From contig CP179887.1 in the NCBI GenBank assembly GCA_047456295.1, positions 303,159 through 367,158 of the forward strand: a DNA stretch of 64,000 nt, given 5' to 3'. A program made the translations under genes and the position numbers. Shown here piece by piece: positions 13,996-33,735 of this stretch (positions within the stretch are counted from its first letter, which is position 1; every line of letters begins with the position of its first letter). A model generated the notes under the pieces. That model was not told where the DNA came from. It searched no databases and saw only the letters and a list, made by a program, of their open reading frames with translations. This DNA is from Candidatus Nealsonbacteria bacterium (GTDB lineage: Bacteria; Patescibacteriota; Minisyncoccia; Minisyncoccales; JANBVM01).

Positions 13996-15120
13996 TTAAA
14001 GGTAGGCATATATTGGTTCTTTGAATTTCACTTTTTTTGGTCTTAAGGGCAGATATTGAAAAATATAGAGAGCTGCTCCTAATTTGGGAGATTTTTTAAT
14101 AATCTTTTTATCAAACATCAAAGAAAGTCTTTTTGTGATTTCTTTGTCCTCTTTGTGAAGCATAATATAGGGATAATAAATTTTATTTAGAATCAACTCC
14201 TCTATAATCAAATTATTTTTAGTAAAGAAATCCTGCAAAAACAAGAATCTGTTTCCTATCGTCCCTTCCCCTACTTCCAAAAATACTATTCCTCCATCTT
14301 CACTCAATTGATTTTTTCCAAATTTAACAAACTCTTTCACCCCAGCTGCCGTATACATAGGGTTTGTTAAAAACCCGATAAATTTTTCTCCCAAGAATTT
14401 TTGCTTTCTTATATCAACTTTCCGGGTTTCAATTTTCAAATTGAATCTCAAAGCAAGGTTATCAATGCAGGAAAGCAACTCTTCATCTGCATCAATAACA
14501 AGAGATTCTATTTTCGGATTAACTAAACTTAAAATTATTGAAATGAAATCATCGTCTCCAACAAATAAAAACTTCTTATTTTTAGGAAGATATCTTAATA
14601 TCTTTTCAACAACAAAAAAAGCAGATTCTGTAGAAATTGGCATCTGGTCCCATTTACCTTTTATTTTAAAAGCCTGAAACTTTTTAAATAAATTAACAAC
14701 GGGTCCTTTGTCTCTAATCTTTAACTTTAATTTTATTTCAATCTTTCTTTTTATCTCCTTGCTATTTTGAGGTCTGGGAATTATTTCCTCAATTTCTTTT
14801 TTAACTAAAGAAACCTTACCGTTTTTTTTAATCTTAATTATCTTTTCCTTTTCTAAAAACTTTAGATAATACCAAAGATTCCAATCTTCTTCTGATTTTT
14901 TAACAATGAAATCAAAAACATTTCTGGAATAAATTATGTCTTTAACATAACTTAAAAATCCTAAAAAGGGAGTTTTTTGATAATTTTCATAAAATTCCTT
15001 AAGAATTTTTTTATTTAACTTAAGTTCTCCTACTCCAATCCAAATTTTTGCATCACAAAGAAAGTAATTTCTATCAAATTTTAAAAATTTCTTATAAAGA
15101 TTTTTCAAGAATTTTTCCAT
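13996..15120 (-). CDS. DUF43/BpsA-like aminopropyltransferase (candidate branched-chain polyamine synthase)
   Basis: 374 aa. KKFLFVGDDDFISIILSL carries the GDDD motif I recall from the N4-bis(aminopropyl)spermidine synthase family. Lies directly downstream of speE (1-nt gap). Confidence 0.55.
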   Translation of the reverse strand: MEKFLKNLYKKFLKFDRNYFLCDAKIWIGVGELKLNKKILKEFYENYQKTPFLGFLSYVKDIIYSRNVFDFIVKKSEEDWNLWYYLKFLEKEKIIKIKKNGKVSLVKKEIEEIIPRPQNSKEIKRKIEIKLKLKIRDKGPVVNLFKKFQAFKIKGKWDQMPISTESAFFVVEKILRYLPKNKKFLFVGDDDFISIILSLVNPKIESLVIDADEELLSCIDNLALRFNLKIETRKVDIRKQKFLGEKFIGFLTNPMYTAAGVKEFVKFGKNQLSEDGGIVFLEVGEGTIGNRFLFLQDFFTKNNLIIEELILNKIYYPYIMLHKEDKEITKRLSLMFDKKIIKKSPKLGAALYIFQYLPLRPKKVKFKEPIYAYL

Positions 15121-15121
15121 A

Positions 15122-15979
15122 TTATTTCAATCTTTTTCTATAAAATTTAGGTAGAATTCCTGAAGCTAAATGTATTTCAGGAGAATAGTATTTAATATCT
15201 TTGATCTTTTTAAATCTCTTTTCTATCTTTTTAATACCAAAACCTTCCAGATTTATCTTTTTAGAAGCTAAAGTAAAACTAAAATCCGAGCCTTGATAAT
15301 CAGGAGTAAATATCCGGTGTACTTTTACATAGGGGAAAAAAGGTTTTAGGTTTTTAATAGCTGTCTTGATTTCTGAGATTTGGTCTAAAAAATTTCCACT
15401 TTGGGTAATAAAAATTCCTTGTTTTTTTAAAGCCGAAAAACTATTCTTATAAAATCTTTTTTGAAACAAAGGAAAAGAAAAACCCATTGGATCGGTAGAG
15501 TCAACAATTATTACATCAAAGAAATCTTTAAATTTTTTAATAAAGGTTGTCCCGTCTTCAAAAAACAATCTCACTTTTTTTTGCTTTAAAGAATTCTTGA
15601 GATTTAGAAATGGAAGATATTTTTTTGAAACTTCCACTACTTTTGAATCCAATTCTGCTAAAAAAATTTCTTTTAAGGAGTGTTTTAAAACCTCGCGGAG
15701 GACGCCACCATCCCCTCCCCCTATAATCAAAATTCTTTTTGGATTTGGGTGATAAAATAAAGGCAGGTGAGAAATCATTTCATGATAGATAAATTCATAT
15801 TTTTCTGACAACTGTAAAATACCATCTAAAACAAAAATCCTTCCTAAAGCGAAGGTATCTAAGATTTCAATTTTCTGATATTTACTTTTTCCAAGATAAA
15901 CCCTCTTTTTTAATCGCAAACCAGTTCTATAATTCTGAACAGTATTGGGAAGTTTTTTTTCAAAAAACCATTCTTTCAT
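15122..15979 (-). CDS. speE: Spermidine synthase (aminopropyltransferase)
   Basis: 285 aa. Contains ILIIGGGDGGVLREVLKH and VIIVDSTDPMG. Confidence 0.9.
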   Translation of the reverse strand: MKEWFFEKKLPNTVQNYRTGLRLKKRVYLGKSKYQKIEILDTFALGRIFVLDGILQLSEKYEFIYHEMISHLPLFYHPNPKRILIIGGGDGGVLREVLKHSLKEIFLAELDSKVVEVSKKYLPFLNLKNSLKQKKVRLFFEDGTTFIKKFKDFFDVIIVDSTDPMGFSFPLFQKRFYKNSFSALKKQGIFITQSGNFLDQISEIKTAIKNLKPFFPYVKVHRIFTPDYQGSDFSFTLASKKINLEGFGIKKIEKRFKKIKDIKYYSPEIHLASGILPKFYRKRLK

Positions 15980-15983
15980 ATTC

Positions 15984-16346
15984 TCAGCGAGTGAGTGTTC
16001 TATTTTTAACTCTTTTTGCTTTAAAAAATTTCTTAGTAAAATCCTTGGCTATTTTATCGTCAAATGATTTACAAGAAAAGATATTAATGAATGCCCTGTT
16101 CCATTGCTCGGAAAAATGACCTGAAACCAAACTGGTTTCTATTAACTGAACCAAAGAGAAGCCAGCTGTAAAACCTGTTCCAAATCTTATGACAATCGCT
16201 TTGCCGTATTTTTTAACTTTAATCAATTTACAGATTTTATCTGAATATTCTGAAATTTTCTTCTTTGATTTTAAAATCTTTGGATCACAGTCATAAAGAT
16301 CCATAATCAATTCCTGCCCAAAAATTTTCGATTGATTTCCTTTCAT
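15984..16346 (-). CDS. S-adenosylmethionine decarboxylase-like paralog with altered processing motif
   Basis: 120 aa. GQELIMDLYDCD and INIFSCKSF align with SpeH, but the ES-H self-cleavage site reads LIETSLVSGHFSE. It has a 4-nt overlap with the upstream canonical speH. Confidence 0.7.
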   Translation of the reverse strand: MKGNQSKIFGQELIMDLYDCDPKILKSKKKISEYSDKICKLIKVKKYGKAIVIRFGTGFTAGFSLVQLIETSLVSGHFSEQWNRAFINIFSCKSFDDKIAKDFTKKFFKAKRVKNRTLTR

Positions 16347-16750
16347 ATCTTTCCTCTTTTTATATTCTTTATTTCAACTTTTTTTGGTTTAAATTCCTTT
16401 TTAAAATAATCCAAGGCTTTGGCAGGAATAGACTTATCACCACAGGTAAAAATATCTATTGCCAAATAATTGTACTCAGGCCAAGAATGAAAAGCAATGT
16501 GGCTTTCAGCTAACAAAACAACCCCAGTAATACCATGGGGTGAGAATTTATAAATATCTACTTTTAAAGGAGTGCTGTTTGCCTTTTTAGCAGCTGTAAT
16601 CAAAATCTTTTTTAATTCTTCTTTGTCTTCCACAATCTTCCCATACCAAAACTCGGCAATCAGATGAATGCCTGCATATCTTGTTTTTTCTTTGGCGTTT
16701 ATGACCCATCTTATGGATCTCTTTGTTTTTTGGAACATTTTTTTTGACAA
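16343..16750 (-). CDS. speH: S-adenosylmethionine decarboxylase proenzyme (pyruvoyl type)
   Basis: 135 aa. GIHLIAEFWYG, the canonical LLAESHIAFHSWPE processing site, and IDIFTCG. Confidence 0.9.
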   Translation of the reverse strand: MSKKMFQKTKRSIRWVINAKEKTRYAGIHLIAEFWYGKIVEDKEELKKILITAAKKANSTPLKVDIYKFSPHGITGVVLLAESHIAFHSWPEYNYLAIDIFTCGDKSIPAKALDYFKKEFKPKKVEIKNIKRGKI

Positions 16751-17625: not shown

Positions 17626-18570
17626 TTAAAGATATTGGAGTTCTTCTTTCAAAATTATCCCAAATTTCTCTTTAACTTTCTTTTTTGTTAACCTTATTAA
17701 CTTTTTAACATCCTTTGCTTTTCCATTTTTCACATTAATAATGAAATTTGAATGCTTTTTTGAAATTTTTACACCTCCGATTCTCTTTCCGCTCAATCCA
17801 CATTCTGCAATTAATTTTCCAGCAGGAAGAGTTTGAACTTTTTTCTTTCTTAAACCTTTACCAATACGGGGATTTTCAAAAATACTTCCTACCGAAGGAA
17901 AGTCTAAAGGATGAAATTTCTTACGATAATTTACATATCCTTTCATTTCTTTTTCACTTTTCTTTCTGTTTCCTTTTTTAAATTGAACTTCGCAAGAAAG
18001 AATAATCAAATTGGGATTTTTTTTAAAGATACTGTTTCGATAACTGAATTTACAATCTTTATTTTTTACAATTATTCTTTTTTGCTTTTTTACATCAAAA
18101 ACCTCAACCTTTTTCACAATATCTTTCATTGATTTTCCAAAAGCCCCGGCATTTCCCCTTATAGCCCCTCCTACTGTCCCGGGAATTCCCGCTGCCCACT
18201 CTAATCCGCTTAAACTATTCTTTGAAGCAATCTTGGTCAGCTGTTCTATTGATAGACCAGCTTGTGCAAAAATCCTGCAATTTTGCACCTCAAATCCTGA
18301 ATGTTGAACCTTTATTATCAATCCATTAAAGCCTTTGTCTGAAATCAATAATTTGCTTCCTCCTCCCAAGATATAAAAAGGGAGATTGAATTTTTTTGCC
18401 GCCTTAACTGCCAGAATTAAATCTTCCTTTGTTTTGGCCTTAAAGAAATACTTAGCCCTGCCTCCGATCCTGAAAGTAGTGTGGTTTTTAAGCGATATAT
18501 CAAATCGTATTTTAGGAAAAAGTTTCTTTAGTTCCTGATATACTTTAGTTTTCATATTATAAAGGGCCAA
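17626..18570 (-). CDS. murB: UDP-N-acetylenolpyruvoylglucosamine reductase
   Basis: 314 aa. Contains NHTTFRIGGRAKYF, GGGSKLL, GIPGTVGGAIRGNAGAFG and a C-terminal SNFIIN. The TTG start at 18570 has AGGAG 8 nt upstream. Confidence 0.9.
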   Translation of the reverse strand: MALYNMKTKVYQELKKLFPKIRFDISLKNHTTFRIGGRAKYFFKAKTKEDLILAVKAAKKFNLPFYILGGGSKLLISDKGFNGLIIKVQHSGFEVQNCRIFAQAGLSIEQLTKIASKNSLSGLEWAAGIPGTVGGAIRGNAGAFGKSMKDIVKKVEVFDVKKQKRIIVKNKDCKFSYRNSIFKKNPNLIILSCEVQFKKGNRKKSEKEMKGYVNYRKKFHPLDFPSVGSIFENPRIGKGLRKKKVQTLPAGKLIAECGLSGKRIGGVKISKKHSNFIINVKNGKAKDVKKLIRLTKKKVKEKFGIILKEELQYL

Positions 18571-18818: not shown

Positions 18819-21047
18819 TTATTGGGGTAATTCTTTTAAAAACTGCTCAACCTCGGGAGCTAAATCTGGATTAATCTCTATTACTTTTTGAGCTGCTTGT
18901 TTTGCTTTTTCAAATTGGCCCAGGTTGGCATAGCTGTTGGCTAAACCTGCCCAGACCTCGGCATTTTCAGGATGAATTTCTATTGCCTCTTGGTAAAGAT
19001 ATAACACGCTCAAATCATCTCTTAAAACCTGATAAATTTCAGCTACCTGTCTTAGATTGTTCACGTTCTTTTTCCAATTATAACCTGCTTTTTCTGCATC
19101 TTTTACCTTTTGTAAGGCTTCTTCATATTGACCTGTCGTCTTATGGGTCATAGCCAAATACCAATAAGATACACCCAGTCTTGGTTCCAGGTCAATTGCT
19201 TTTTGAAACAAGTCATAGGCCAGTTGAGATTCACCCTTTGACAGCTTGACTTCAGCTAAGTGCCAATAACCCTGCTGGTTGGTAGGGCTCAATTCTATTG
19301 CCCTTTCAAGGGTTTTTTCTGCCAAATCTAATCTTTTCCTGTCCTCGCTAAAGCTGTAGCCGCTAAAATAAAGTCTACCCAAAAAAATATGAGGACGGAA
19401 ATCCAAGGGGTTTTTTCTAATGCTCTCTTGCATCTGCTCTTCAGCCACAAGAAAGGCAGATTCCAAAACCTGCCTGTCTTCTGTTAAATCAAAACCAGCT
19501 TCATAAACCCTTTGGGCAAACTGTTCCCTTATTTCGTATTTTTCCATTAAGGTATTTAGGGCTTTTTTGTAAAAATCCAATCTCTTTTCCAGGTTAACAG
19601 AAGAAACAATCATGTGAACTGTGTCTACGGCGCTATTGGCAGGTTGAATATTTCCAAAGTAAAGTAAAGAAACAGTTAGAACCCCGATCACACCAAAAAT
19701 GAGATATCTGCCAAAACCCTTTTCAAGTACCCCTAAAGGGGAATTGGATGATTCTTCAGCTGGTTGAAAAAATGAATCTTCTTTCTCTGTTATCAAAAAA
19801 GTGACAAATCCCAGGCTCAAAAAAAAGACGGTATAGCTTGATATCATATCAAAAACTAACAGGTTCTGGAAAAAATAAACAATCAACAAAACCGCCATTC
19901 CCAAAAAAGAAAAAATATTCCTCTTTTCTTTAAGATAAACTCTTAAAAGACCAAAGATTGAAACAGCAAAAATTAACAAATAACTTAAAAGACCAACTAC
20001 CCCGGTGGCAACCAGGCTATCTAAAACAATATTGTGTGCCCTGTCAAACCAAATCTCTCCTCCGCATTCTGACAGAAACATACAGGGATTAAAAAATTTT
20101 GTAAAAACCACATTGAAGTTTTCAGGACCCCAGCCAAATATCGGCTTTTGTAAAAATCCTTTCCAGGCCTTTTCCCAAACAACAAATCTGGGTTTCATCT
20201 CTTGTAAAGTTATCTCAATTGTATTTTTAATAAAAGCAGGTTGATAAATTGCAAGAATTATTCCTAAAACTATTAAAAACAAAACTAAAAATACCCCCAT
20301 TTTTTTCAGGTTTTTTTCCCCTGAAAAAATTAAATAACCCAAAAGAAATAAAGCCAATCCTCCAAAGAAAGAAATGATTGCTCCCCTAGCCGTAGAAGTT
20401 AATAAAACCGGAATGAAAATTATCAAAGATATTCCAGAAAAAATTCTCCAGCCAGAAGTCTTTTTTTCCAAAAACAAAATCAAGGCAAAAAAAATGTCAA
20501 ACAGTAAGTAAGCTGCCATAAAAGAAGTATTTCCAATTGTCCCTCCTCCCCTGGTAGAGACTCCTATTTCTCCTGGAAGCAAAACATAGAAACAAAGCAA
20601 AATACCAACTAATATGGAAACAGAAAGAATCTTTTCCCAATCTTCTCTTTTGTTGAAACAGCTGGTCAAAATAATGAAAAAAACTAAAAGATGAAAAAAG
20701 GTAAAGAGACCCGTCATTCTTTCAAAAGTGCTCCAAAAACTTCTTTCAAAGTTAATTCCCAAAAAAGACGTCAGAATCAATACTCCGACAAAGATAAAGA
20801 TTGAAATAGACAGAATATTAATTTTTGGACGATAGCGAGGAAAATATATTACCAAAATCAAATATGCTGCAAAAATAATCTCAACCAAAACCCTAAAATA
20901 AATGGTTTTAGGAGTAACAAAAGGAAAAAAAGATCTTCTGCTTATAATTAAAGGCGTGAATAAAACCAAATAAGTCCCCCATCTAATTATTGAAAGGCAA
21001 AACCTTTTTAAGGCTAAATTCTCGTTTTCTCTAAATTTTTTACCCAT
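18819..21047 (-). CDS. O-antigen ligase/polymerase-like (Wzy_C-type) membrane protein with C-terminal TPR repeats
   Basis: 742 aa. About 12 TM segments, with LLTSTARGAIISFFGGLALF typical of O-antigen ligase-like domains. The C-terminal ~250 aa are TPR-like (AIELSPTNQQGYWHLAEVKL, AIDLEPRLGVSYWYLAM, AIEIHPENAEVWAGLANSY). Confidence 0.75.
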   Translation of the reverse strand: MGKKFRENENLALKRFCLSIIRWGTYLVLFTPLIISRRSFFPFVTPKTIYFRVLVEIIFAAYLILVIYFPRYRPKINILSISIFIFVGVLILTSFLGINFERSFWSTFERMTGLFTFFHLLVFFIILTSCFNKREDWEKILSVSILVGILLCFYVLLPGEIGVSTRGGGTIGNTSFMAAYLLFDIFFALILFLEKKTSGWRIFSGISLIIFIPVLLTSTARGAIISFFGGLALFLLGYLIFSGEKNLKKMGVFLVLFLIVLGIILAIYQPAFIKNTIEITLQEMKPRFVVWEKAWKGFLQKPIFGWGPENFNVVFTKFFNPCMFLSECGGEIWFDRAHNIVLDSLVATGVVGLLSYLLIFAVSIFGLLRVYLKEKRNIFSFLGMAVLLIVYFFQNLLVFDMISSYTVFFLSLGFVTFLITEKEDSFFQPAEESSNSPLGVLEKGFGRYLIFGVIGVLTVSLLYFGNIQPANSAVDTVHMIVSSVNLEKRLDFYKKALNTLMEKYEIREQFAQRVYEAGFDLTEDRQVLESAFLVAEEQMQESIRKNPLDFRPHIFLGRLYFSGYSFSEDRKRLDLAEKTLERAIELSPTNQQGYWHLAEVKLSKGESQLAYDLFQKAIDLEPRLGVSYWYLAMTHKTTGQYEEALQKVKDAEKAGYNWKKNVNNLRQVAEIYQVLRDDLSVLYLYQEAIEIHPENAEVWAGLANSYANLGQFEKAKQAAQKVIEINPDLAPEVEQFLKELPQ

Positions 21048-22558: not shown

Positions 22559-23653
22559 TCAAAGAGTTTTGTAAATCTCGTTCGTTTTTTTTAACATTTT
22601 TTCTAAAGAAAATTCTTTAACAGTTTTTTCTTGAGCTGCTCGTCCCATTTCTTGAATTAATTCAGGATTTTTTAATAATTTCTCCAGGGCTTTTTTTAAT
22701 TCTTCTTTATCTCCTCTCTTTATTAGAATTCCACATTTCTCATCTATTGCCTCTCTTATTCCACCCACATCAGAAGCAATGATTCCTAAACCGCAACTCA
22801 TTGCCTCAATAACCGTATAAGGAAAACCTTCCCAATTTGAAATTAAAACAAAAATATGGCTCTTTTTTAAAATTTCAAAAACTTCTTTGCGGGGTAATCT
22901 GCCAAGCAATTTTATCTTTTTTTCTAATTTGTTTTCTTCAATAAACCTTTCTAACTCTTTTCTTTTTATACCTTCTCCGATAATAGAAATTTGGACTTTA
23001 TTCTTTATTTCAAAAGATAATTCATTAAATCCTTTAATTAAAAGTAAAGGATCTTTTTGCCTACCCAATCTCCCAACGAATACTATTTTAATCTTGTTAG
23101 GATCAATTTCCCTGGGGAATTCAGCTTGAATTTCCATCCCATTGTGAATAGTAACTATTTTCTCAGGAGAAGCAATTTTGTATTTCAAAGCTAATTTTTT
23201 GTCAAATTCTGAAACACATATAATCTTACTGCAAAATCTAGCTGCTATTTTTTCAGCAAGTAAAACTGGATATCTCCTCCACCAAGGCACTCCTGGGGTA
23301 AATCCCCAGCCATGAGCAGTAAAAATTGTGGGAATTTTATTTTTTACTACCAATCTACCCAAAAATCCGGCCTTGGTACTGTGGCAAGAAATTAAATCTG
23401 GTCTAAAATCTTTGATTGCTTTTTTAATTTCCTTTATTGTTTTAAAATCTCTAATTAAATTTATCTCATTAAACAAATATTTATTGGGATAAAATTTTAT
23501 TCCCAATTCCCCCATTTTTTTCTCTAGCCAACCTCCTAGATAACTCATCACGGCAATTTTTTCTCCCCTTTTTATAAAATACCGGCTAAGTTGATAAATA
23601 TGGGTTTGGGCCCCTCCTATCTCTGATTTAGTTATTAAATAAAAAATCCTCAT
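22559..23653 (-). CDS. Glycosyltransferase family 4 (GT-B)
   Basis: 364 aa. EGFPYTVIEAMSCGLGIIASDVGGIREAI is the E-x7-E region. Confidence 0.85.
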   Translation of the reverse strand: MRIFYLITKSEIGGAQTHIYQLSRYFIKRGEKIAVMSYLGGWLEKKMGELGIKFYPNKYLFNEINLIRDFKTIKEIKKAIKDFRPDLISCHSTKAGFLGRLVVKNKIPTIFTAHGWGFTPGVPWWRRYPVLLAEKIAARFCSKIICVSEFDKKLALKYKIASPEKIVTIHNGMEIQAEFPREIDPNKIKIVFVGRLGRQKDPLLLIKGFNELSFEIKNKVQISIIGEGIKRKELERFIEENKLEKKIKLLGRLPRKEVFEILKKSHIFVLISNWEGFPYTVIEAMSCGLGIIASDVGGIREAIDEKCGILIKRGDKEELKKALEKLLKNPELIQEMGRAAQEKTVKEFSLEKMLKKTNEIYKTL

Positions 23654-23660
23654 CTAAGTT

Positions 23661-24962
23661 TTAGAAAATTTTATACAATCGCCTTTGCCCTTTTAAAGCA
23701 GAAAGTAAAATATATTTTTTGAAAAAAGAATTCTCTATAATAAATTTTACAAAATCTTCTGCATTATAATTTTTATATGCTCCTTTCATTTGATACTCTT
23801 CTGGATTGTGTGTTTCAAAAAATAATTCTTTAGCTTTCATTTTGTGTAAAAGATTTCTCAACTTCTCATAAGTGCTTTTCCTTTTCAAAAAATGATGAAA
23901 TATATTCAGGGCTAAAACTATATCAAAATTTAGTACTTGACCTTTTTTATAATCAAATATTGATTGTTGAATAATCTTGAATTTTTCATTATTAGCATCT
24001 CTTAATCTCTGCATAAAGTAGGCATCTTCGGGATTAATTTCAACAGCCCAACAATCAAATCCAAGCTGTTCAAATCTATGACAAAAATAGCCGAGATTTG
24101 CGCCAATATCCAAAACCCTGCCTTTTAAAAAAGATGTGTTGTTTTTTATCAATTCAAAACGTTCTGGGCCATAAACAAAAGGAATATCTTCTAAATCACA
24201 ATAATATGCTGGCTGATATAATTTTCCTCCTTTTAATTCGGCATAGGATTTTAGTTTGTCTTTGAAATCCATCCATTTTTTATGTCTTACTAAAACCATA
24301 ACTGGAATCTTAGAAAGTTGAAGTATTTTGGCTATAGCAAGCCGATGAGCCCCGTCATTGAAAAGCAGTTGTCCATTTCTTCCTATGCTAATTAATATTT
24401 CATCAATTTTCCCGTAGTGTTTATCCGCTTTCCCTTGATAAGTATCCGATTGATTATTGTCTTGTCTTATATTTAGATAATAACCCTTGGTTTTAATACT
24501 TTCGTAAAGATTATCTATTAATTTCAATCTTTTTTCCCACTCTTCCTTGCTCCGGCAACGCCACATAATCTCTCCATTATTAATTCTTTTAAGAATATCC
24601 TTGTAGAATCTTGTTTCTTTCCATTCTTTGTGCTCAATAAATCTTTCTTTTAATCCTTGATATGTTTTGCTTTCTGAAAACTTCTTATCAGAAATATCCC
24701 AATTACCTCCCTTTACCATTCCTCTGTCGGCAAAAACATTAAACCTGCCATTGTAACAATATTGAATCTTTTCTGGATCTACTAAATATATTTTAAAAAT
24801 ATTAATATCCTTTGTTTGATTCTTGCGTAAGGAAAAAATGATTTTATAAAATATAAACCTTATATCGCGCAATAGTTTAATAGTAGGACGACCAATAAAA
24901 GGAAGATGGTCTTCTAAAAAGAAAAGGGGCTTTTTAAAATTGTCTAAGGTTTTTTTCTTCAT
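23661..24962 (-). CDS. Fusion protein: ParB/Srx-fold domain plus class I SAM-dependent methyltransferase
   Basis: 433 aa. The middle region ILISIGRNGQLLFNDGAHRLAIAKILQLSKIPVMV is a ParB-like DGxHR..IPV pattern. The C-terminus VLDIGANLGYFCHRFEQLGFDCWAVEINPED...LNIFHHF is a Rossmann MTase motif I plus following motifs. Confidence 0.6.
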   Translation of the reverse strand: MKKKTLDNFKKPLFFLEDHLPFIGRPTIKLLRDIRFIFYKIIFSLRKNQTKDINIFKIYLVDPEKIQYCYNGRFNVFADRGMVKGGNWDISDKKFSESKTYQGLKERFIEHKEWKETRFYKDILKRINNGEIMWRCRSKEEWEKRLKLIDNLYESIKTKGYYLNIRQDNNQSDTYQGKADKHYGKIDEILISIGRNGQLLFNDGAHRLAIAKILQLSKIPVMVLVRHKKWMDFKDKLKSYAELKGGKLYQPAYYCDLEDIPFVYGPERFELIKNNTSFLKGRVLDIGANLGYFCHRFEQLGFDCWAVEINPEDAYFMQRLRDANNEKFKIIQQSIFDYKKGQVLNFDIVLALNIFHHFLKRKSTYEKLRNLLHKMKAKELFFETHNPEEYQMKGAYKNYNAEDFVKFIIENSFFKKYILLSALKGQRRLYKIF

Positions 24963-25843
24963 TTTTTAAATACTCCCTTTATCATTCCAAACCCCTTTGA
25001 AAAATGCCCAACCAAAAACTGTCTCAAAATCCAACCAATACTTGACCAGATAAATTTCATCCGATTTTTGAAATTTTTTTGAACATTATCTCTATAAATA
25101 ACGCAGCGATTAAAACCCTCTTTTTCTCCTATTATAAAATCTGTGTCTTTAGAAACAGAAGATTCTTTATGAAACACTTTTGCTTCAGGAATAATGAGAA
25201 AATAATATCCTGCTTTCTTGGCTTTCATAAAAAAATCTACATCTTCTAAAGCTGTCCTCCCGGGACTCAAAGGACGAAACGGAATTTTTTCAATTAAATC
25301 CTTTCTAAAAGAAGAAACTCCTCCGCTTAAATAAAAAACTTTTCCACTCTTTTTAATGGAAGGATCCCAAACCTGAAAACCAATATCGGTAATATCCCAG
25401 CTTATAGGAGAAGACAAGAGAAAAATTTTATTAAAAATTTTTTCAAAAAAGAAGATTGGTCTGAGGTTCTCAATAATTCCCCCTATTCCTCCAAGATTTG
25501 GATCATCTTTGTATTTTTCCCATTCTTTTTTAAGTAGAGCGATATAATCTTTTTCTAAAATTACATCATCGTCAAGAAATAAAACAATATCGCTGGAAGC
25601 TTTTTTTGTTCCAAAATTTTTAGATTCGGCCAAACCAGGTACGTTTTTTTTAAAATATTTGAATCTAATATTTAAATTATATAACAAAGATTGGATGTGT
25701 TGTTTTTGGAGCTCGGAAATATTTCCATCATCAATAATAATAATTTCGTTCGGCAACACTGTTTGTCCTATAATTGATTCGATACAACCCACAAGATCTT
25801 GCTCTCTATCTTTTGTTGGAATAACAACGCTGAGATACAACAT
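24959..25843 (-). CDS. Glycosyltransferase family 2
   Basis: 294 aa. LSVVIPTKDRE..IIIIDDGN...FLDDDV (DxD). Confidence 0.85.
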   Translation of the reverse strand: MLYLSVVIPTKDREQDLVGCIESIIGQTVLPNEIIIIDDGNISELQKQHIQSLLYNLNIRFKYFKKNVPGLAESKNFGTKKASSDIVLFLDDDVILEKDYIALLKKEWEKYKDDPNLGGIGGIIENLRPIFFFEKIFNKIFLLSSPISWDITDIGFQVWDPSIKKSGKVFYLSGGVSSFRKDLIEKIPFRPLSPGRTALEDVDFFMKAKKAGYYFLIIPEAKVFHKESSVSKDTDFIIGEKEGFNRCVIYRDNVQKNFKNRMKFIWSSIGWILRQFLVGHFSKGFGMIKGVFKK

Positions 25844-27767: not shown

Positions 27768-28840
27768 TTTATTAGTCCGATAACTTTAAAAATCTCATTA
27801 AATCTTTTTTCATAAGTATGATCTCTGAGGGTTTTTTCATAACCAACTTTAGCAATGGCTTCTCGTTCTTCATCGTGGATTAAATAATAACGAATTTTAT
27901 CAATAAGGTCTTTAGTGTCTTTATAAATTACAATTTCTTTACCGTCCCTATAGTATTCAGCTAAATTATCAGCACCACTGGTTAATAAAAATCCTCTACA
28001 GCCAGGAATTTCAAAATTTCGACCCTTAATTTGTTCTCGCCTTCTACCCAAAATAGACTTAAAATTATCAATCCATTCTCTGGGATTACAGGGTCGAATA
28101 GAGGCGTCGTGTCTCCGCCTCAAAAATATTTTAGCTAGTGTTTTCCAGTTCATAACTCCGGAACTCTTGGTTAAATTGAGATTAATTTTGCTCTGAGAAA
28201 ATATTTTTATCATTTCTTCCTGAGAAATTCTTCCTTCTGGCCAACCTTGGCCCCAACATTTTATATCTATACCAGCCTCTTTTATTTTCTCTACTACCTT
28301 TTTTCTATTTCCGTGGGGTTGACTAACAAAGGTAACATCATAAATCTTTGGCAAATTTAAGGGCTTATATAAAAAATAATTACAAGCCCATTGGCTTTTG
28401 ATAACATTGTTGAAACCTATATTTTGATATTTAGCTAGAGCTTTAGAATCCGTAGTCACCATCCAGTTGAAATAAGGTATCCAATATTTTGAATAATTAT
28501 CAAAACGCCAATGATCATCGGCAAACCAATTAAAGGTTATTGATCTGTTTTTTTCCGTAATTTCTCTAATGACTTCTTTTTTAATTTCGTCCTCAAAAAG
28601 AAAAAAGAAACATAAGTCTGGTTTTTCTTGATAAACAGTTTCTAAAAGTTGTTGATTCATCTTTTCCCGCCCTGCTTTTTGAATAATCTCATCGAAGGGA
28701 AAATAGACCACTTGATTTCTACCATTATCCATCTTTGTTAAGGAATCATAAAAATTATAATGCTCAAAAGAAAAACCTCTTTCAGGTTTTCCATAATCAT
28801 ATTTTAATGCTATATAGAGAATCTTCATTGTTTCAGCCAA
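27764..28840 (-). CDS. CgeB-family/DUF3880-like glycosyltransferase
   Basis: 358 aa. The C-terminus NFEIPGCRGFLLTS...EIVIYKDTKDLIDKIRYYLIHDEEREAIAKVGYEKTLRDHTYEKRF is typical of CgeB-like GT1_2 domains. Confidence 0.7.
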   Translation of the reverse strand: MAETMKILYIALKYDYGKPERGFSFEHYNFYDSLTKMDNGRNQVVYFPFDEIIQKAGREKMNQQLLETVYQEKPDLCFFFLFEDEIKKEVIREITEKNRSITFNWFADDHWRFDNYSKYWIPYFNWMVTTDSKALAKYQNIGFNNVIKSQWACNYFLYKPLNLPKIYDVTFVSQPHGNRKKVVEKIKEAGIDIKCWGQGWPEGRISQEEMIKIFSQSKINLNLTKSSGVMNWKTLAKIFLRRRHDASIRPCNPREWIDNFKSILGRRREQIKGRNFEIPGCRGFLLTSGADNLAEYYRDGKEIVIYKDTKDLIDKIRYYLIHDEEREAIAKVGYEKTLRDHTYEKRFNEIFKVIGLIK

Positions 28841-30360
28841 GTTCTTAGTAATTTGCCTTCTTCTGCCTCATATCCTACTAAGGACAATTTTAGTAAATCT
28901 TCTTTAATTTTTTCTCGGTTAATATTTCCTTTCTTTTTCTTAGCTTGGACCTCAATGTTCGGCAAGCGCAAATAAGAAATTTCTTTGTAAAATTTAGGAC
29001 CTAAAATTAATTTTAGAAAACTTAGCCTTCTTAAAATATAAGGAATAAAAGTTTTAAGAAAGCCAGGAGATTTTTTAAATTTCAATTGATAAAAACCGAG
29101 TTTGCTAAGAAAAAACTTAAACTTCTGTTTGTCCCAATAATCTTTATGATAAGCCCATTTTGCTTCCTGAGAGCCAAAAATATGTCTAGCTAATTGCATC
29201 CGTTCTGAGAAATTACCAATTCTAAAAAGAGAAATAGATTTGGTAAAATCTGGCGTTTCTATCCTTAAAACTCCATCTGTCTTTAACCACTTTCTCCATT
29301 TTAAAAGTAAATCAATAGCTTCTACTTTAGAAAAATGCTCAAACAAATGATGACTGCGAACTTCATCAACGCTTTCTTCCGGATATTCTAAATCGCGGAT
29401 ATCTTTATAAACATCCGCCTTCGGGGAAATAACAGTATGTCTCGAGGGAGGAAAATCTATATTAATATACCCCTCTAAATATTGCTCTCCACAACCGAGG
29501 TGGAGTCTTAAAAATTGTCCTTTCATGAATTGGTTGGTACGATGGTTTGAACAATCGTCAGCATGCAGTTTGCTTTTTAACAAGTGGTAAAAGCGGTATA
29601 ATTTAATTTTACGGATGATTATACCTACTATAGATCGCAGCCATCTTAAACTCATAAGCTTTACCTTAATTCCTTTGCTATACTTCCAAGCCAACCAGAA
29701 AGATTCCCAATTCTGCTTAAAGGCATGACGTTGACTTACAGCTCCAGTATGAACTAAATCATAAGAAATCGGCTTTGGTATCTTCTTAGGCTTATAATTC
29801 CTACCTACGCGGAGCCAAAATTCATAGTCTGGCGAATAAAGAATTTTTGGATTAAATAAGCCGACCTTACCAAATAGTTCCTTTTTAATGAAAGTATTCT
29901 CTAAACCGATGTAACAGCGTTTTAGTAACAGCTGATAATTAAATTCATTAGGTGCGTTTAATTTATCGATTTTATCTTCTTTTTCGTATACATTGTACGA
30001 ATCCCCATAAATCCATAGAACCTGAGGATTGTTCTTGAAAAACCTTATAACCGCACTTAAAATGTTCTTCTCATACCAATCATCTGATGCTAAATACCCT
30101 ATTATTTCTCCTTGTGAAACTTTGATACCATTATTAATTGCTATTGATATTCCTCTATTTGAAGTAGAAGAAAATAATTTAACTCGTTTATCTTTTTTTA
30201 TAAAAGATTTTACTATTTCTTGCGTTCTATCATTAGAACCGCCATCAACCACTATTATTTCTAAATCTTTATAATCTTGTTCAACAACACTTTTTAATGC
30301 TTTAGCAATATGCTTCTCTGAATTAAGTGTTGTAATTAATATACTTATCATTTTGAACAA
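28825..30360 (-). CDS. Fusion: N-terminal GT2 glycosyltransferase plus C-terminal SAM-dependent methyltransferase
   Basis: 511 aa. ISILITTLNSEKH..IIVVDGGSNDRT..LASDDWY is the GT2 part. LRLHLGCGEQYLEGYINID...HHLFEHF...LKTDGVLRIETPD is the MTase part. Confidence 0.75.
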   Translation of the reverse strand: MFKMISILITTLNSEKHIAKALKSVVEQDYKDLEIIVVDGGSNDRTQEIVKSFIKKDKRVKLFSSTSNRGISIAINNGIKVSQGEIIGYLASDDWYEKNILSAVIRFFKNNPQVLWIYGDSYNVYEKEDKIDKLNAPNEFNYQLLLKRCYIGLENTFIKKELFGKVGLFNPKILYSPDYEFWLRVGRNYKPKKIPKPISYDLVHTGAVSQRHAFKQNWESFWLAWKYSKGIKVKLMSLRWLRSIVGIIIRKIKLYRFYHLLKSKLHADDCSNHRTNQFMKGQFLRLHLGCGEQYLEGYINIDFPPSRHTVISPKADVYKDIRDLEYPEESVDEVRSHHLFEHFSKVEAIDLLLKWRKWLKTDGVLRIETPDFTKSISLFRIGNFSERMQLARHIFGSQEAKWAYHKDYWDKQKFKFFLSKLGFYQLKFKKSPGFLKTFIPYILRRLSFLKLILGPKFYKEISYLRLPNIEVQAKKKKGNINREKIKEDLLKLSLVGYEAEEGKLLRTWLKQ

Positions 30361-30366
30361 GTCATT

Positions 30367-31662
30367 TTATACAAGATATTGTACAGGACCTTGAGCAGCT
30401 ATTATCCTAGGTCTTGGTAAAGGAACAATAAATTTTCCTCCCTTAAGTAAATAATTTCTCTCTCGTTTTTTGAAAGCTTCAAGAAAATGCCAAGGCAACA
30501 CTAAAAAGTAGTCTGGGTTATTCTTCCTTGCCTCCTCCTCAGAAATAATCGGAATCAAAGTACCAATGGTCTTTTTGCCGTACTTTCGTGGGTCTCTTTC
30601 GGCAGCAGCAACAATCAAATCAGAGTTAAGATTAAAAAATTGCAAAAGTGTATTTCCTCTTGTTGAAGCTCCATAAACATAGACTTTTTTGTTTTTTTGC
30701 GTTTCGCTTTTAATAAAATCATTGATGGCATCTTTGATTTTATTTATTCGTAAGCCAAATTCATCATACACTTTTCGTTGATTAAGACCTATGTTCTTTT
30801 CATACTCCCTAACTCTTTTTAATCTTTCTTCTGCGCCCTCAAAAACTTTAAGGGATTTACACTCTGTATGTCTAATATATGCCCGGATACTTCCACCATT
30901 AACATCATTCAATAAAATATCAAATACTTCTAATCTGTATTTTTTCAAAAGATTTTCTAAAGCAAGTAGTGAATAATATTCAAGGTGTTCATGGACTATG
31001 TTATCAAAAGCATTTCGTTCTAACATCGAAACGAGATAATTCATCTGGATAATAAACAAACCATCTTTATCAAGCACTTTTACAATATCTTTAATAAATT
31101 CGTTCGGATCGTCTAAATCATAAAACATTGAAATAGCTGTAATAATTTTTACCTTTTGATTGCCAAACTCTTTTTTAAAGTTGTTTGTATTAAAATAATC
31201 ATTAAATATTTTTGTCGTACCAACCTGCGCATATTGTACTAAATCTTTTGCCGGATCAAATCCAACAAGTTTAAGTCTTTTGACTTTTCCTCTATAAAAA
31301 CGAAGCATAGTCCCGTCATTACAGCCGATATCAAGGACAATATCTCCAGTATATAAATCCCTTATTTGAACAGCCTTCTCAACAATATCAGCTAATTCGC
31401 TTTTCATTGTTTCATTAATCGCAGACCGGTACCAATATCCTTTTCTGTAGAGCAAATCTCGATCAACTGTATGTCTAAGCTGAAGCAAACCACACCCTCC
31501 TGAGTTTGCATTGCATAAAACAATATCAAGGGGTGCTTTTGAAACTCCAGTATTAGAGCTTTCAACAAAACAAGAAGGATAAATATTTCCTAAAGAAAGA
31601 ATAGGAATAAGATTTTTTGCACCACAGGCACAACAAGTATAAATAGTTTTTAGACCAGACAT
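30367..31662 (-). CDS. NDP-hexose C-methyltransferase-like enzyme (zinc-ribbon N-domain + MTase + C-methyltransferase C-domain, TylCIII-like)
   Basis: 431 aa. N-terminus CCACGAKNLIPILSLG (putative Zn site). Also VLDIGCNDGTMLRF and an architecture like sugar C3-methyltransferases. Confidence 0.65.
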   Translation of the reverse strand: MSGLKTIYTCCACGAKNLIPILSLGNIYPSCFVESSNTGVSKAPLDIVLCNANSGGCGLLQLRHTVDRDLLYRKGYWYRSAINETMKSELADIVEKAVQIRDLYTGDIVLDIGCNDGTMLRFYRGKVKRLKLVGFDPAKDLVQYAQVGTTKIFNDYFNTNNFKKEFGNQKVKIITAISMFYDLDDPNEFIKDIVKVLDKDGLFIIQMNYLVSMLERNAFDNIVHEHLEYYSLLALENLLKKYRLEVFDILLNDVNGGSIRAYIRHTECKSLKVFEGAEERLKRVREYEKNIGLNQRKVYDEFGLRINKIKDAINDFIKSETQKNKKVYVYGASTRGNTLLQFFNLNSDLIVAAAERDPRKYGKKTIGTLIPIISEEEARKNNPDYFLVLPWHFLEAFKKRERNYLLKGGKFIVPLPRPRIIAAQGPVQYLV

Positions 31663-31676
31663 AAATACATAATTAC

Positions 31677-32651
31677 TTATTGTTCATTTGCAAATTCTTT
31701 ATGTTCAAGATACCAACTAATAGTTTTCTCAAGACCCTGCTCAAAGTTCGTTTTTGCCTTAAAACCAAATTCTTTTTCTGCTCTCGTCGTATCTAATCTT
31801 CGTCTTGGTTGTCCATCTAGTTTAGATGTATCCCAATGAATTTCTCCTTTAAAATTCATTAATTTACAAATCAATTTTGTCAAATCTGTAATAGAAATTT
31901 CCATACCTGAACCAAGATTAATCGGTTCCATTTTATTATATTTTTCTGTGGCAAGTAAAATTCCCTCAGCAGCATCCTCAACATATAAAAACTCTCTTGT
32001 AGGATTGCCACTACCCCAAACTTCAATATAATCTCTACCTTCATCTTTAGTCTCAGCTATTTTTCTTATCAAGGCAGGTATAACATGAGAAGTTTTTAAA
32101 TTAAATTTGTCAAAAGGTCCATACATATTTACTGGCAAGAGATAAATTGCGTTAAATCCGTATTGCTGACGATAGGCTTGAGCTTGGACTAAAAGCATTT
32201 TTTTTGCTAAACCGTAAGGGGCATTTGTTTCTTCGGGATAGCCATTCCATAAATCTTCTTCTTTAAAAGGAACAGGGGTAAATTTTGGATAGGCACAGAT
32301 AGTCCCAATTGCTACAAATTTTTCAATACCTGTTTGACGAGCGGCCTCTATTAATTGAATACCCATTATGGCGTTGTCGTAAAACATCTCTCCTGGTATT
32401 TTTTGATTTAAACCAATACCACCGACTTTGGCTGCTAAATGTATAACTATATCTTGGCCAGCGACCGCTTTTTGGCAATTCTTCCATTTTCTTAAATCTA
32501 ATTGTTCAAAAGTGGGCAAAAATAGATTCTCTTTTGGAATTTTTCTTTTCTCTAATAAATTTCTAACCAGATGTTTACCTAAAAATCCCTGAGCGCCAGT
32601 AATTAAAATCTTCTTTTTAGTTAAATCAATCATAAATTGTTTGTTATTCAA
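31677..32651 (-). CDS. fcl: GDP-L-fucose synthase (GDP-4-keto-6-deoxy-D-mannose 3,5-epimerase/4-reductase)
   Basis: 324 aa. [39 protein letters not shown]. Overlaps gmd by 8 nt. Confidence 0.9.
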
Positions 32652-33735
32652 AGTGATTTTTTACTTCAAAACCCCCATTTTTCAAATGGGCATCTCTTTT
32701 TGCTTCCTCTAAATCTGAATGAACCATTTCTTTTACCAATTCTTCAAAACTGGTTTTTGGTCTCCAACCGAGTTTTTCTCTTGCTTTAGTTGAATCGCCT
32801 AATAGTGATTCCACTTCGGCTGGTCGAAAATATCTTGGGTCAATTTCTACTATTATTCTGCCTGTCTTCTTGTCTATTCCCTTTTCATTTAAACTTTCTC
32901 CTTGCCATTCTAAATCAATCCCTAGTTCTTCGAAGGCAAACTCGCAAAATTCTCTAACCGAGTGTTGCTGTCCGGTTGCTATTACATAATCATCAGGTTC
33001 TGGCTGTTGTAACATTAACCACATTGCCTCAACGCTATCTTTGCTGTGCCCCCAATCTCTTTTGGCATTAAGATTTCCTAAATACAATTTATCTTGCAGT
33101 CCTAAACTAATTCGGCTAGCTGCTCGGGTAATCTTCCGGGTGACAAAGGTTTCTCCTCGCCGTGAACTCTCGTGATTGAATAAAATGCCGTTGCAGGCAA
33201 AGATATTGTAGGCCTCACGATAATTAATAGTAATCCAATAAGCATACAACTTAGCTACTCCATAAGGACTTCTTGGATGAAAGGGAGTATTTTCGTTTTG
33301 AGGCGCTTCGCCTGGCTTGCCGGAAAACAACTCACTGGTTGAGGCCTGGTAAAATTTTGTTTTTTTCTCTAAACCAAGAATTCTAATGGCTTCTAATAAT
33401 CTTAAACATCCTAAAGCATCAGTATTTGCCGTATATTCCGGCATCTCAAAGGAAACTTTAACGTGCGACATAGCCGCCAAATTATAAATCTCGTCTGGTT
33501 GGATTTTTTGGATAATTCTCATCAAATTAGTAGCATCAGTCATATCACCATAATAAAGAATAAACCTTCTATTTTTTTCGTGAGGGTCTTGAAATAAATG
33601 GTCTATTCTTGCCGTATTAAAAGAAGAGGCGCGTCTTTTAATTCCATGGACCTCGTAACCTTTATTTAATAAAAACTCAGCCAGATACGAACCGTCTTGT
33701 CCCGAGACGCCAGAGATTAGTGCTTTTTTTGCCAT
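32644..33735 (-). CDS. gmd: GDP-mannose 4,6-dehydratase
   Basis: 363 aa. [72 protein letters not shown]. Confidence 0.95.

Follow-up and report, generated by a model that had tools for sequence, protein, structure and literature searches.

A Candidatus Nealsonbacteria genome encodes, in a Wzx/Wzy-type glycan locus, a protein of 433 residues that joins two folds, that of ParB and sulfiredoxin (Srx) and that of the class I SAM methyltransferases (MTases); conserved motifs mark both, the second is specifically related to O9a WbdD, and the context is that of glycan synthesis. The function favoured here, put forward tentatively and with a confidence that falls just short of even, is that of a bifunctional glycan modifier, in which a ParB/Srx-fold kinase is combined with a phosphate methyltransferase, making the protein an analogue of WbdD with a non-homologous kinase. 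An earlier note on this DNA, made from the letters alone, had speculated about a phosphotransferase and methyltransferase acting on a glycan; the two folds, the GxxR motif, the kinship of the MTase with O9a WbdD and the glycan context speak for this idea, of which the phosphotransfer itself is the proposed part.

Gene, locus and family

The open reading frame is present on the minus strand of the window (the whole stretch of 64,000 nucleotides that was analysed), starts with ATG and encodes a protein 100% identical to P0001, which is labelled 'MAG: methyltransferase [Candidatus Nealsonbacteria bacterium]'. Both peptides quoted in the earlier note exist in its translation, namely ILISIGRNGQLLFNDGAHRLAIAKILQLSKIPVMV as residues 189-223 and VLDIGANLGYFCHRF...LNIFHHF as residues 283-358. 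The features discussed below are as follows.

22559..23653, minus strand: downstream GT4 glycosyltransferase, separated by a 7-nt gap from the target stop codon
23661..24962, minus strand: whole open reading frame, 433 aa plus stop codon
24959..25843, minus strand: upstream GT2 glycosyltransferase, with a 4-nt overlap between its stop codon and the start codon of the target
24795..24962, minus strand: two basic amphipathic helices, residues 1-56 (model helices 3-19 and 21-45)
24228..24794, minus strand: ParB/sulfiredoxin-fold domain, residues 57-245, from the AlphaFold model and Foldseek, with no Pfam model
24549..24710, minus strand: family-specific insertion, residues 85-138, with G86, W88, D89, W114, T117, Y120 and C136 near-invariant
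24486..24548, minus strand: Box I (C-motif) helix, residues 139-159, predicted from the model, with the motif defined as in PMC12704722
24342..24353, minus strand: Box II P-motif GxxR, here GAHR, residues 204-207, the ParB/Srx phosphate-binding motif
24273..24287, minus strand: RHxxW motif, here RHKKW, residues 226-230, directly after the IPV strand
23664..24227, minus strand: class I SAM methyltransferase of the WbdD(O9a) type, residues 246-433, including the pre-Rossmann extension YQ..H..R
24216..24218, minus strand: Y249, aligned with WbdD Y16 and conserved at 99% in group A
24090..24116, minus strand: SAM-binding motif I, VLDIGANLG, residues 283-291
24039..24041, minus strand: E308, the acidic residue of motif II
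23892..23900, minus strand: F355-H356-H357, with H356 and H357 aligned with WbdD H132 and H133 (phosphate-binding site)
23682..23684, minus strand: R427, aligned with WbdD R203

The gene is thus packed between two glycosyltransferase (GT) genes with the small spacing that had been described from the sequence, and the overlap of the GT2 stop codon with the target start codon suggests translational coupling of these two genes. The same glycan locus also encodes a Wzy_C-TPR protein, an initiating sugar transferase, four additional GTs, a sugar C-methyltransferase, a GDP-mannose dehydratase, epimerases, Wzx, a nucleotidyltransferase and DegT. Kinase Pfam families are found neither in this locus nor in four annotated homologue loci; within the window locus, no phosphate-installing enzyme was seen other than the candidate N-terminal domain (N-domain), and there are no obvious genes for a UDP-sugar dehydrogenase or a uronic-acid pathway.

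The N-domain defines a family that makes up at least 4,575 clusters when grouped at 50% identity (representatives at E<=1e-3) in bacteria and archaea; it is common in archaea and includes CPR bacteria and Asgard archaea. Conservation was counted over 286 full-length relatives, with a main group of 244, and genomic context over 83 loci. A GT lies within 10 kb in 66 of these loci and is directly adjacent in 42, GT4 enzymes being the commonest neighbours, and one 1,559-aa protein, P0228, combines the module with GT2 and GT4 domains in a single chain. Every annotated homologue context is a glycan locus, while phage or restriction-modification contexts were not found among the annotated loci, so that the survey of homologues proposed in the earlier note places the family with glycan synthesis. 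The N-domain is the mark of a large, strongly conserved and unannotated family tied to glycan assembly. Two apparent stand-alone N-domain proteins, from matches of 230-290 aa, proved unclean on inspection, P0131 ending within the MTase domain and P0141 carrying an aberrant C-terminal tail.

The methyltransferase domain and its relation to O9a WbdD

The presence of a class I MTase after the ParB-like segment, as first read from the sequence, is confirmed by Pfam matches at about residues 278-392 (Methyltransf_12, 6.5e-8; Methyltransf_23, 1.8e-7), with Methyltransf_11 also matching. The AF2 model of the domain has a pLDDT above 95, and the SAM-motif residues D285 and E308 are conserved in 96% and 97% of the 286 members, respectively. 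By profile, hhalign and Foldseek, the closest solved relative of the domain is O9a WbdD (E. coli O9a / Klebsiella O3; mannose-3-kinase and phosphate methyltransferase; 4azs, 4azw, 4uw0). WbdD is the top match of the family profile among PDB sequences (E 2.4e-4) and is homologous over the full length of the MTase in hhalign (95% probability, E 3.8e-8, WbdD residues 14-208), where the O99 WbdD homologue of E. coli, with its O9a-like MTase, gave a second positive (94.7%). In Foldseek, WbdD occupies ranks 1-3, 5 and 6, with a small lead over other class I MTases (6e-9 vs 4e-8). The O8 WbdD of strain IAI1, a direct 3-O-methyltransferase terminator with no kinase, was taken as the negative control; it is likewise a glycan-modifying class I MTase from an O-antigen locus, but it reached only 37% probability in hhalign over the generic Rossmann core, and equivalents of YQ, FHH and R are absent from its alignment.

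The likeness to O9a WbdD extends to the YQ..H..R extension and to four essential residues common to both proteins. In WbdD, the phosphate site is formed by H132, H133 and R203, and the substitutions Y16F, H132A, H133A and R203A each abolish phosphate methylation (PMC3482155). The corresponding Y249, H356, H357 and R427 show no variation in A1, and their conservation in the main group is 98-100%. NodS or RebM, although not phosphate methyltransferases, also have a His-His pair at the position of H132/H133, but R203 is not conserved in them (PMC3482155). Beyond the shared His-His, specificity is added only by R427 and Y249, and the Y/HH/R pocket could bind another anion, for example a carboxylate or sulfate. 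The window protein itself deviates in having Y254 where the family (98%) and WbdD (H22) have His.

Both proteins are encoded in a glycan locus beside GT4 enzymes, and both pair the MTase with a phosphotransferase, which in the present case is a proposed one. They differ in the partner domain, since O9a WbdD carries a eukaryotic-like protein-kinase fold C-terminal to the MTase, whereas the window protein lacks such a kinase domain and has the ParB/Srx-fold domain N-terminal to it; the window protein also ends with the MTase, without the C-terminal coiled-coil ruler or the membrane-anchoring helix region. Furthermore, O9a WbdD is a chain terminator in an ABC-transporter pathway, whereas the window locus, like most of the family loci, is Wzx-type: Wzx-like flippases lie near the family in 35 of the 83 loci and ABC-transporter permeases (Wzm-like) in 7, and a kinase-domain profile found no WbdD-type kinase in any of the 83. 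The analogy with WbdD drawn in the earlier note is strengthened for the MTase by its O9a kinship and invariant phosphate-methylation residues; a chain-terminating cap is indicated neither by the transporter counts nor by the absent ruler.

The ParB/sulfiredoxin-fold domain

The central region likewise deserves the ParB/Srx label it had been given, on structural grounds and despite the absence of any Pfam or NCBIfam model for residues 1-270, ParBc included, even at E<=10. PF02195 (ParBc) matched none of 59 family members at E<=1, and membership of the fold therefore rests on structure and motif and not on a curated sequence model; single-sequence phmmer of the 433-aa protein against the PDB gave no useful matches, and the ParB-like match among PHROGs is non-significant (E 0.083). 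With the AlphaFold2 model of residues 55-262 (pLDDT 84.9), in contrast, the structure prediction and Foldseek comparison suggested at the outset returned ParB/Srx-fold proteins as 49 of the top 50 PDB matches, with E-values of 0.01-0.7 and a probability up to 0.95; these matches include Srx (some with ATP), ParB, Noc, KorB, SbnI, SerK, PadC and Atu1540. Individually, the E-values are weak (0.002-0.7) because of the large insertion in the N-domain, and the BFVD matches that have names are nearly all ParB/Sulfiredoxin. On the model, the N-domain thus has a ParB/Srx fold. The best PDB sequence for the family profile over DGxHR..IPV is SbnI, whose DGVHR aligns with the P-motif of the family in a weak match (E 0.1-0.19, ~47 residues). 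The full-length model has a pTM of 0.86, which indicates that the predicted protein is a defined two-domain assembly.

Ahead of this domain, the helical residues 1-56 are rich in basic side chains (K/R 13 vs D/E 5) and are missing from the fusion protein P0228; they may serve for peripheral membrane association. No transmembrane segment occurs in residues 1-56, and a transmembrane anchor was rejected, the maximum 19-residue hydropathy being 1.51 and located in a core strand.

Within the domain, the insertion carries the family motif GDWD, which reads GGNWD in the window protein and covers G86, W88 and D89, and it is a candidate acceptor-sugar binding site. The Box I helix ends at the conserved G160 and is followed by a variable, low-confidence and disordered loop of ~27 residues (residues 160-186, window 24405-24485); the usual base-contacting Box I loop in the ParB-CTPase fold has ~6 residues (PMC12704722). 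In the P-motif, whose Arg is needed for NTP binding in the ParB-CTPase fold (PMC12704722), G204 is conserved at 93%, H206 at 97% and R207 at 98% of the 286 members; for the RHxxW motif, the values are 97% for R226 and 100% for both H227 and W230. The invariant polar or aromatic residues beyond the P-motif are W88, D89, W114, Y120, R195, R226, H227 and W230.

Two free-serine kinases, SerK (T. kodakarensis TK0378) and SbnI (Staphylococcus), share the core of the fold with the N-domain and align at DGxHR...IPV, the core RMSD with SbnI being 2.8 Å over 78 columns. Once annotated as ParB, SerK is an ADP-dependent Ser kinase (PMC5120207). These enzymes give the precedent that a ParB-annotated protein can be a small-molecule O-kinase. 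They differ from the N-domain in several respects: sequence similarity is non-significant (E about 0.1), the N-domain has a ~55-residue insertion in addition to the ~27-residue Box I loop, the acceptor is serine where a glycan is proposed here, neither kinase is fused to a methyltransferase, and the Asp of DGxHR varies within the window family. This last position (residue 203) is equivalent to D58 of SbnI and is D in 59%, N in 30% and E in 5% of the 286 members. We take the catalytic acidic residues of the ParB/Srx-fold kinases to be E20 and D58 in SbnI and E30 in SerK, and the PDB title of 5x0k reads 'E30Q mutant' (SerK). D89 and D187, which are invariant in the N-domain, are candidates only for a catalytic acidic residue. 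The similarity of the N-domain to SbnI and SerK is weak and does not exceed its similarity to ParB, Noc and Srx, which are not kinases.

Among the Foldseek matches, the best E-values belong to Srx; GAHR in the window protein corresponds to the GCHR motif of Srx, whose His-Arg contacts the ATP phosphates. Srx also performs ATP-dependent phosphoryl transfer to an oxygen nucleophile, but as a 100-aa single domain that acts on a protein sulfinic acid with a catalytic Cys, a position occupied by Ala or Arg in the window family. With SerK and SbnI as precedents and Srx using ATP, phosphoryl transfer to O-nucleophiles is known on the ParB/Srx fold, and the N-domain is proposed to be an NTP-dependent phosphotransferase. 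As for the conservation of the nucleotide-binding residues of the Srx fold, the GxxR motif is kept.

A further observation concerns 35 of the 286 members in which the catalytic and SAM residues of the MTase are decayed, although W88, D89, H206, R207, H227 and W230 are still 100% conserved. This retention is hard to explain for a domain serving the MTase alone, and the N-domain would appear, judging from the sequences, to function autonomously.

Proposed reaction and competing readings

With an O9a-type MTase coupled to a phosphotransferase, the enzyme would work like O9a WbdD, the kinase being replaced by the ParB/Srx-fold domain. The protein would be cytoplasmic and probably membrane-peripheral. 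In a first putative step, residues 57-245 would bind an NTP via the P-motif G204-R207 and transfer its terminal phosphate to a sugar hydroxyl of the lipid-linked glycan made by the neighbouring GTs, the insertion (W88, D89, W114, Y120) and the RHxxW motif providing the likely acceptor site. In a second step, which is suggested by homology, residues 246-433 would use SAM to methylate that phosphate, presumably held by Y249, H356, H357 and R427. The product would be a methyl-phosphate substituent on the glycan, with both the phosphate as acceptor and the identity of the sugar being suppositions; in a Wzx/Wzy-type locus, decoration of the repeat unit would be more likely than chain termination. 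Speaking against the kinase step, 17 of the 28 ParB-fold proteins that were purified in a PNAS 2025 survey showed no NTP binding in vitro (PMC12704722). Extended to the whole family, and with somewhat greater reserve, the proposal is that the ParB/Srx fold may have been recruited as a sugar-hydroxyl kinase which, together with a WbdD-type MTase, adds methyl-phosphate, or plain phosphate in the ~12% of members whose MTase site has decayed, in a non-homologous replacement of the WbdD kinase.

Doubtful, but to be taken seriously, is the alternative that the MTase is the sole catalyst and that the ParB/Srx domain is no kinase but a module for ligand binding or regulation. Its GxxR pocket might bind the diphosphate of an undecaprenyl-PP acceptor or the nucleotide of an NDP-sugar, or the domain might, as in ParB, form an NTP-dependent switch or dimerisation clamp; the acceptor of the methyl group would be either a sugar hydroxyl or a phosphate put on by another enzyme. 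Such a role would be in line with the fact that most characterised ParB-fold proteins are NTP-binding switches and not kinases, and that a bacterial ParB-fold-SAM-MTase fusion bound ATP with no kinase role claimed (PMC12704722). The structural match of the N-domain to ParB and Noc is also as good as that to SbnI, the residue equivalent to SbnI D58 varies, and TagF-like glycerophosphotransferases, which are carried by one family locus (L007), could provide the phosphate. A catalytic N-domain is favoured, on the other side, by the complete conservation of its motifs in the 35 members with a decayed MTase, by the invariant polar and aromatic residues listed above, which look like an active or acceptor site, and by the retention of the WbdD phosphate site in a protein whose locus shows no other phosphate-installing enzyme.

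It is improbable that another anionic group is methylated, for example the carboxylate of a uronic acid to give a methyl ester, by analogy with archaeal AglP; the Y/HH/R residues would then bind this anion, while the ParB/Srx domain might use ATP to activate this group, or its role might be an unrelated one. The family is common in archaea, and methyl-esterified hexuronic acids are found in archaeal N-glycans. The pocket of Y249, H356, H357 and R427 by itself shows an anionic or polar acceptor only, and HH occurs in non-phosphate MTases too (PMC3482155). Against this stand the whole-domain homology with O9a WbdD, including R203, which is tied to phosphate binding (PMC3482155), and the lack of an obvious uronic-acid pathway in the window locus.

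The ParB-CTPase-fold-MTase fusions of the PNAS 2025 survey share the fold and the class I MTase architecture with the window protein, but they were found by PF02195, which the window family does not match, they are phage/prophage-enriched and predicted to act on DNA or RNA, and neither a glycan context nor a WbdD-type MTase is mentioned for them (PMC12704722). That the window protein is a nucleic-acid methyltransferase of this type (phage, restriction-modification or anti-defence), by chance in a glycan locus, is very improbable and already largely refuted: fusions of the ParB fold to N6/N4 MTases and to Methyltransf_23 are known (PMC12704722) and PADLOC gives a weak match to the mad2 MTase core (1.9e-6), but the PADLOC and PHROG matches span the generic Rossmann core only, PF01555 and PF02195 are unmatched, the DPPY-type motif noted as missing at the outset ([DNS]PP[YFWH]) occurs neither in the window protein nor in any of the 286 full-length relatives, the solved structure nearest to its MTase is that of a glycan enzyme, and the glycan context is kept across phyla and domains of life, with one GT2/GT4 fusion.

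If the kinase and phosphate methyltransferase reading is true, the ParB/Srx fold, which already serves as a serine kinase and as a sulfinic-acid phosphotransferase, would gain glycan phosphorylation as a third kind of catalysis. The protein would then also exemplify how one domain of a two-step glycan-capping module is displaced by a non-homologous one: the kinase is exchanged and the phosphate methyltransferase stays. To our knowledge, phospho-methylated glycans are so far restricted to a few enterobacterial O antigens; they would then occur widely in both bacteria and archaea, and an unrecognised, chemically distinctive glycan decoration would be predicted in thousands of lineages. Among these are CPR bacteria and Asgard archaea, about whose cell surfaces hardly anything is known. 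The residues to probe would be R207, D89 and H227 in the N-domain and Y249, H356, H357 and R427 in the MTase. Should the kinase idea fail, the N-domain would still represent a large unannotated family linked to glycan assembly, which escapes the Pfam model used by the latest ParB-fold survey. We know of no methyl-phosphate glycan from any organism carrying the family; its cultured carriers include Catenovulum agarivorans YM01, Neptunicella marina S27-2 and Saliphagus sp. JCM 18423.

The gene and its glycan locus

The open reading frame described in the earlier note stands, with an ATG start and 433 aa, and lies on the minus strand; its protein is a 100% match to a deposited 'MAG: methyltransferase [Candidatus Nealsonbacteria bacterium]'. 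The annotated genes around this target define a glycan locus, laid out in the window as follows:

~18.8-37.9 kb, glycan locus
22559-23653, minus strand, GT4 gene beginning 7 nt past the end of the target
23661-24962, minus strand, target gene
24959-25843, minus strand, GT2 gene upstream of the target, with a 4-nt overlap

The glycosyltransferases of the locus comprise GT4, four GT2 genes and one Glyco_trans_1_2 protein, accompanied by an initiating sugar transferase, a Wzx flippase, a Wzy_C-TPR protein, a nucleotidyltransferase, a DegT aminotransferase and sugar-modifying genes (sugar C-methyltransferase, GDP-mannose 4,6-dehydratase and epimerases). With glycan genes at 18.8-37.9 kb around the target and GT2 and GT4 genes at its flanks, the earlier claim that the gene is embedded among glycosyltransferases is correct. 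Low G+C is the usual signature of surface-polysaccharide loci, and the value of the target gene (29.6%, versus 32.4% for the locus and 34.5% for the window) is read as such.

Several neighbouring genes deserve mention. The 742-aa Wzy_C (O-antigen ligase/polymerase-like) protein (18819-21047, minus) carries fused C-terminal TPR repeats and adjoins MurB (17626-18570); an unrelated 602-kb metagenomic contig (L005:18232-21242) repeats this Wzy_C-TPR-MurB arrangement close to a family member. In a 511-aa GT2 protein (28825-30360, minus), the GT2 domain is confined to residues 6-209 and the C-terminal ~300 aa have no Pfam match. An NDP-hexose C-methyltransferase (Methyltransf_13/14) with an epimerase/reductase and a GDP-mannose 4,6-dehydratase as neighbours (30367-33735, minus) suggests that this glycan contains a branched-chain or 6-deoxy sugar. 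The small CPR (Patescibacteria) genome from which the window comes also has a polyamine gene cluster (13996-16750, minus), in which a spermidine synthase gene is accompanied by two AdoMet-decarboxylase ORFs side by side (120 and 135 aa) and by a gene for a BpsA_C-like protein (branched-chain polyamine synthase C-terminal domain).

Methyltransferase and ParB/sulfiredoxin-fold domains

METHYLTRANSFERASE, the C-terminal class I SAM methyltransferase (MTase) domain, is WbdD(O9a)-like, an unexpected result. E. coli O9a WbdD came first when the family profile was compared with all PDB sequences (E 2.4e-4), and Foldseek with the full model placed WbdD entries at ranks 1-3, 5 and 6. With the WbdD of E. 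coli HS (L008:17966-20092), hhalign matched WbdD residues 14-208 to target residues 247-432 (95% probability, E 3.8e-8). The phosphate site of WbdD is made of R203, H132 and H133, the nearest generic MTases being without R203, and each of the mutations Y16F, H132A, H133A and R203A kills 3-phosphate methylation while leaving the kinase intact (Hagelueken et al., PMC3482155). The alignments pair Y16 with Y249, H132/H133 with H356/H357 and R203 with R427, and likewise WbdD H22 and R36 with target positions 254 and 268. Columns 249, 268, 356, 357 and 427 are invariant in the 59-sequence family alignment and 98-100% conserved in the main family group.

Position 254 is Tyr in the target versus His in WbdD and in 98% of the family: residues 254-257 (window 24192-24203) read YCDL, with Tyr-Cys in place of the family His-Pro (98% and 74%) of the motif YQPxxHPDL. 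His254 is kept in most of the closest homologues of the target in that alignment, and is 97% conserved even where the MTase site has decayed.

As controls, the O99 WbdD homologue behaved like O9a (hhalign, 94.7%), whereas O8 WbdD (L010:43456-44733), which methylates the mannose 3-OH directly without a kinase, matched the generic Rossmann core only (37% probability), with no equivalents of YQ, FHH and R in its alignment. The O9a/O99 match, the O8 mismatch and the conserved phosphate-site residues together indicate that the C-terminal domain is specifically of the phosphate-methylating type.

Pfam and NCBIfam detect only the class I SAM methyltransferase (~residues 278-392); at E<=10 no model, ParBc included, matches residues 1-270, and ParBc matches 0/59 aligned relatives. 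The full-length AlphaFold2 model, built from the 59-sequence alignment, has a pLDDT of 90.4 and a pTM of 0.86, a loop at ~residues 165-185 being its sole poorly defined part. A second model, restricted to residues 55-262 (pLDDT 84.9), was searched against PDB structures, and 49 of the 50 best matches were ParB/sulfiredoxin (Srx)-fold proteins (E-values 0.01-0.7, probabilities up to 0.95), among them human and plant Srx, ParB of Caulobacter, Myxococcus and Bacillus, Noc, KorB, PadC, Atu1540 and the serine kinases SbnI and SerK. The BFVD viral library returned the same fold, the core superposes on SbnI-ADP with an RMSD of 2.8 A across 78 columns, and SbnI was the best, though weak, PDB sequence match of the family profile in this region (E about 0.1, over DGxHR...IPV). 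Individual fold scores are weak because the domain is interrupted by a family-specific insertion at residues 85-138 and, past the Box I helix, has an atypically long loop. Since the matches are unanimous and the Box II GxxR P-motif, with which ParB/Srx proteins bind phosphate, is retained (G204-A-H206-R207, with R207 in 98% of 286 members), the modelled ParB/Srx assignment of the N-domain (residues 57-245), proposed earlier for the central region, is secure. Residues 1-56 form basic amphipathic helices with no transmembrane segment and may tether the enzyme to the membrane.

Family size, spread and loci

The N-domain defines a very large, unannotated domain family. At E<=1e-3, 945 relatives of the full-length target turn up in a database clustered at 90% identity, and the best 120 are nearly all full-length, at about 420-460 aa. 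The N-domain profile, in an exhaustive search, yielded 4,575 representatives at 50% identity, 1,326 of them with E<1e-30, and nearly all top matches share the two-domain architecture. Of the short matches two were inspected, and neither was a clean stand-alone protein; P0131, for one, breaks off within the MTase domain. In a 1,559-aa protein (P0228, L007:2396-7075) the two domains are followed by GT2 and GT4, with two TagF-like glycerophosphotransferases flanking and a sulfotransferase-TPR protein as neighbours; in P0203 (792 aa) an unassigned N-terminal region of ~430 aa precedes the module.

A pattern scan found 197 carriers among GTDB species genomes, including Patescibacteria, Chloroflexota, Planctomycetota, Gammaproteobacteria, Desulfobacterota, Acidobacteriota and Bacteroidota and, in Archaea, Bathyarchaeia, Promethearchaeota, Thermoplasmata and one haloarchaeon; Catenovulum agarivorans YM01, Neptunicella marina S27-2 and Saliphagus sp. 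JCM 18423 are cultured. Homologues too lie in glycan loci. Precomputed annotations show glycan genes in 5/5 loci from different phyla, and a survey of 83 loci, in which locally built profiles make the counts lower bounds, found a glycosyltransferase within 10 kb in at least 66 and directly adjacent in at least 42, and a Wzx-like flippase in at least 35 versus a Wzm-like permease in at least 7. One Asgard archaeon MAG (Promethearchaeota contig JBHLNF010000005.1) has two paralogues ~43 kb apart (L040:10001-11296 and L052:10001-11140), both departing from the canonical residues at the GxHR position (FS and IG), the second flanked by five GT4-like ORFs.

A candidate two-step reaction

The target is proposed to be a capping or decorating module akin to WbdD, in which the phosphotransferase has been swapped. 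The ParB/Srx domain would phosphorylate a sugar hydroxyl of a lipid-linked glycan and the MTase would methylate the phosphate so placed, the overall reaction being that of WbdD run with a non-homologous kinase. Such a two-step enzyme is the most economical reading, because the MTase is of the phosphate type, no kinase other than the putative N-domain is visible in the loci (a locally built profile of the WbdD-type protein-kinase domain matched 0/83) and the N-domain, fused to the MTase and conserved independently of it, has the appropriate fold and an intact P-motif; we favour it tentatively, with confidence a little under even. Phosphoryl transfer to oxygen nucleophiles has two precedents on this fold: the kinases SerK and SbnI (PMC5120207), and Srx, which uses ATP. 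The WbdD analogy of the earlier note holds for the MTase (profile, hhalign, Foldseek). For the enzyme as a whole, decoration of repeat units is expected more than chain termination, since the locus in the window, like the majority in the family, is Wzx-type and the coiled-coil ruler of WbdD is absent from the target. Full-text literature searches, WbdD itself excepted, returned no paper that connects a ParB-like domain with a glycan methyltransferase or with a methyl-phosphate glycan.

The N-domain could instead be a non-kinase ligand-binding or regulatory module, a credible reading to which we give about one chance in three, as its likeness to SbnI/SerK is no better than to the non-kinases ParB, Noc and Srx, and the equivalent of SbnI D58 varies as D/N/E. 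Against it stands the decay pattern of the family. Whereas 244/286 full-length members retain three or all four of the Y/H/H/R residues with intact SAM motifs (D285 and E308, 100%), 35/286 are without this signature (Y249 0%, H356 17%, R427 9%) and show erosion of SAM motif I (D285 77%, G287 63%); yet W88, D89, W114, H206, R207, H227 and W230 of the N-domain are still 100% conserved in these 35, so that the N-domain has a function independent of an active MTase. This autonomous conservation would be expected if the N-domain were itself an enzyme, and would be hard to explain if it merely positioned the MTase substrate. The decayed subgroup (for example P0125, P0129, P0130, P0139, P0147 and P0151; locus L089) may represent 'kinase-only' or pseudo-MTase variants.

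Methylation of an anion other than phosphate is improbable given the conserved phosphate-site residues, even if HH at the H132/H133 position of WbdD occurs in non-phosphate MTases too (PMC3482155). ParB-fold-MTase fusions already known, found via PF02195, are phage-enriched with predicted DNA/RNA targets (PMC12704722), but a nucleic-acid MTase is very improbable here, as PADLOC and PHROGs matches are confined to the generic MTase core and the catalytic motif [DNS]PP[YFWH], of which the earlier note saw no instance in the target, occurs in 0/286 relatives.
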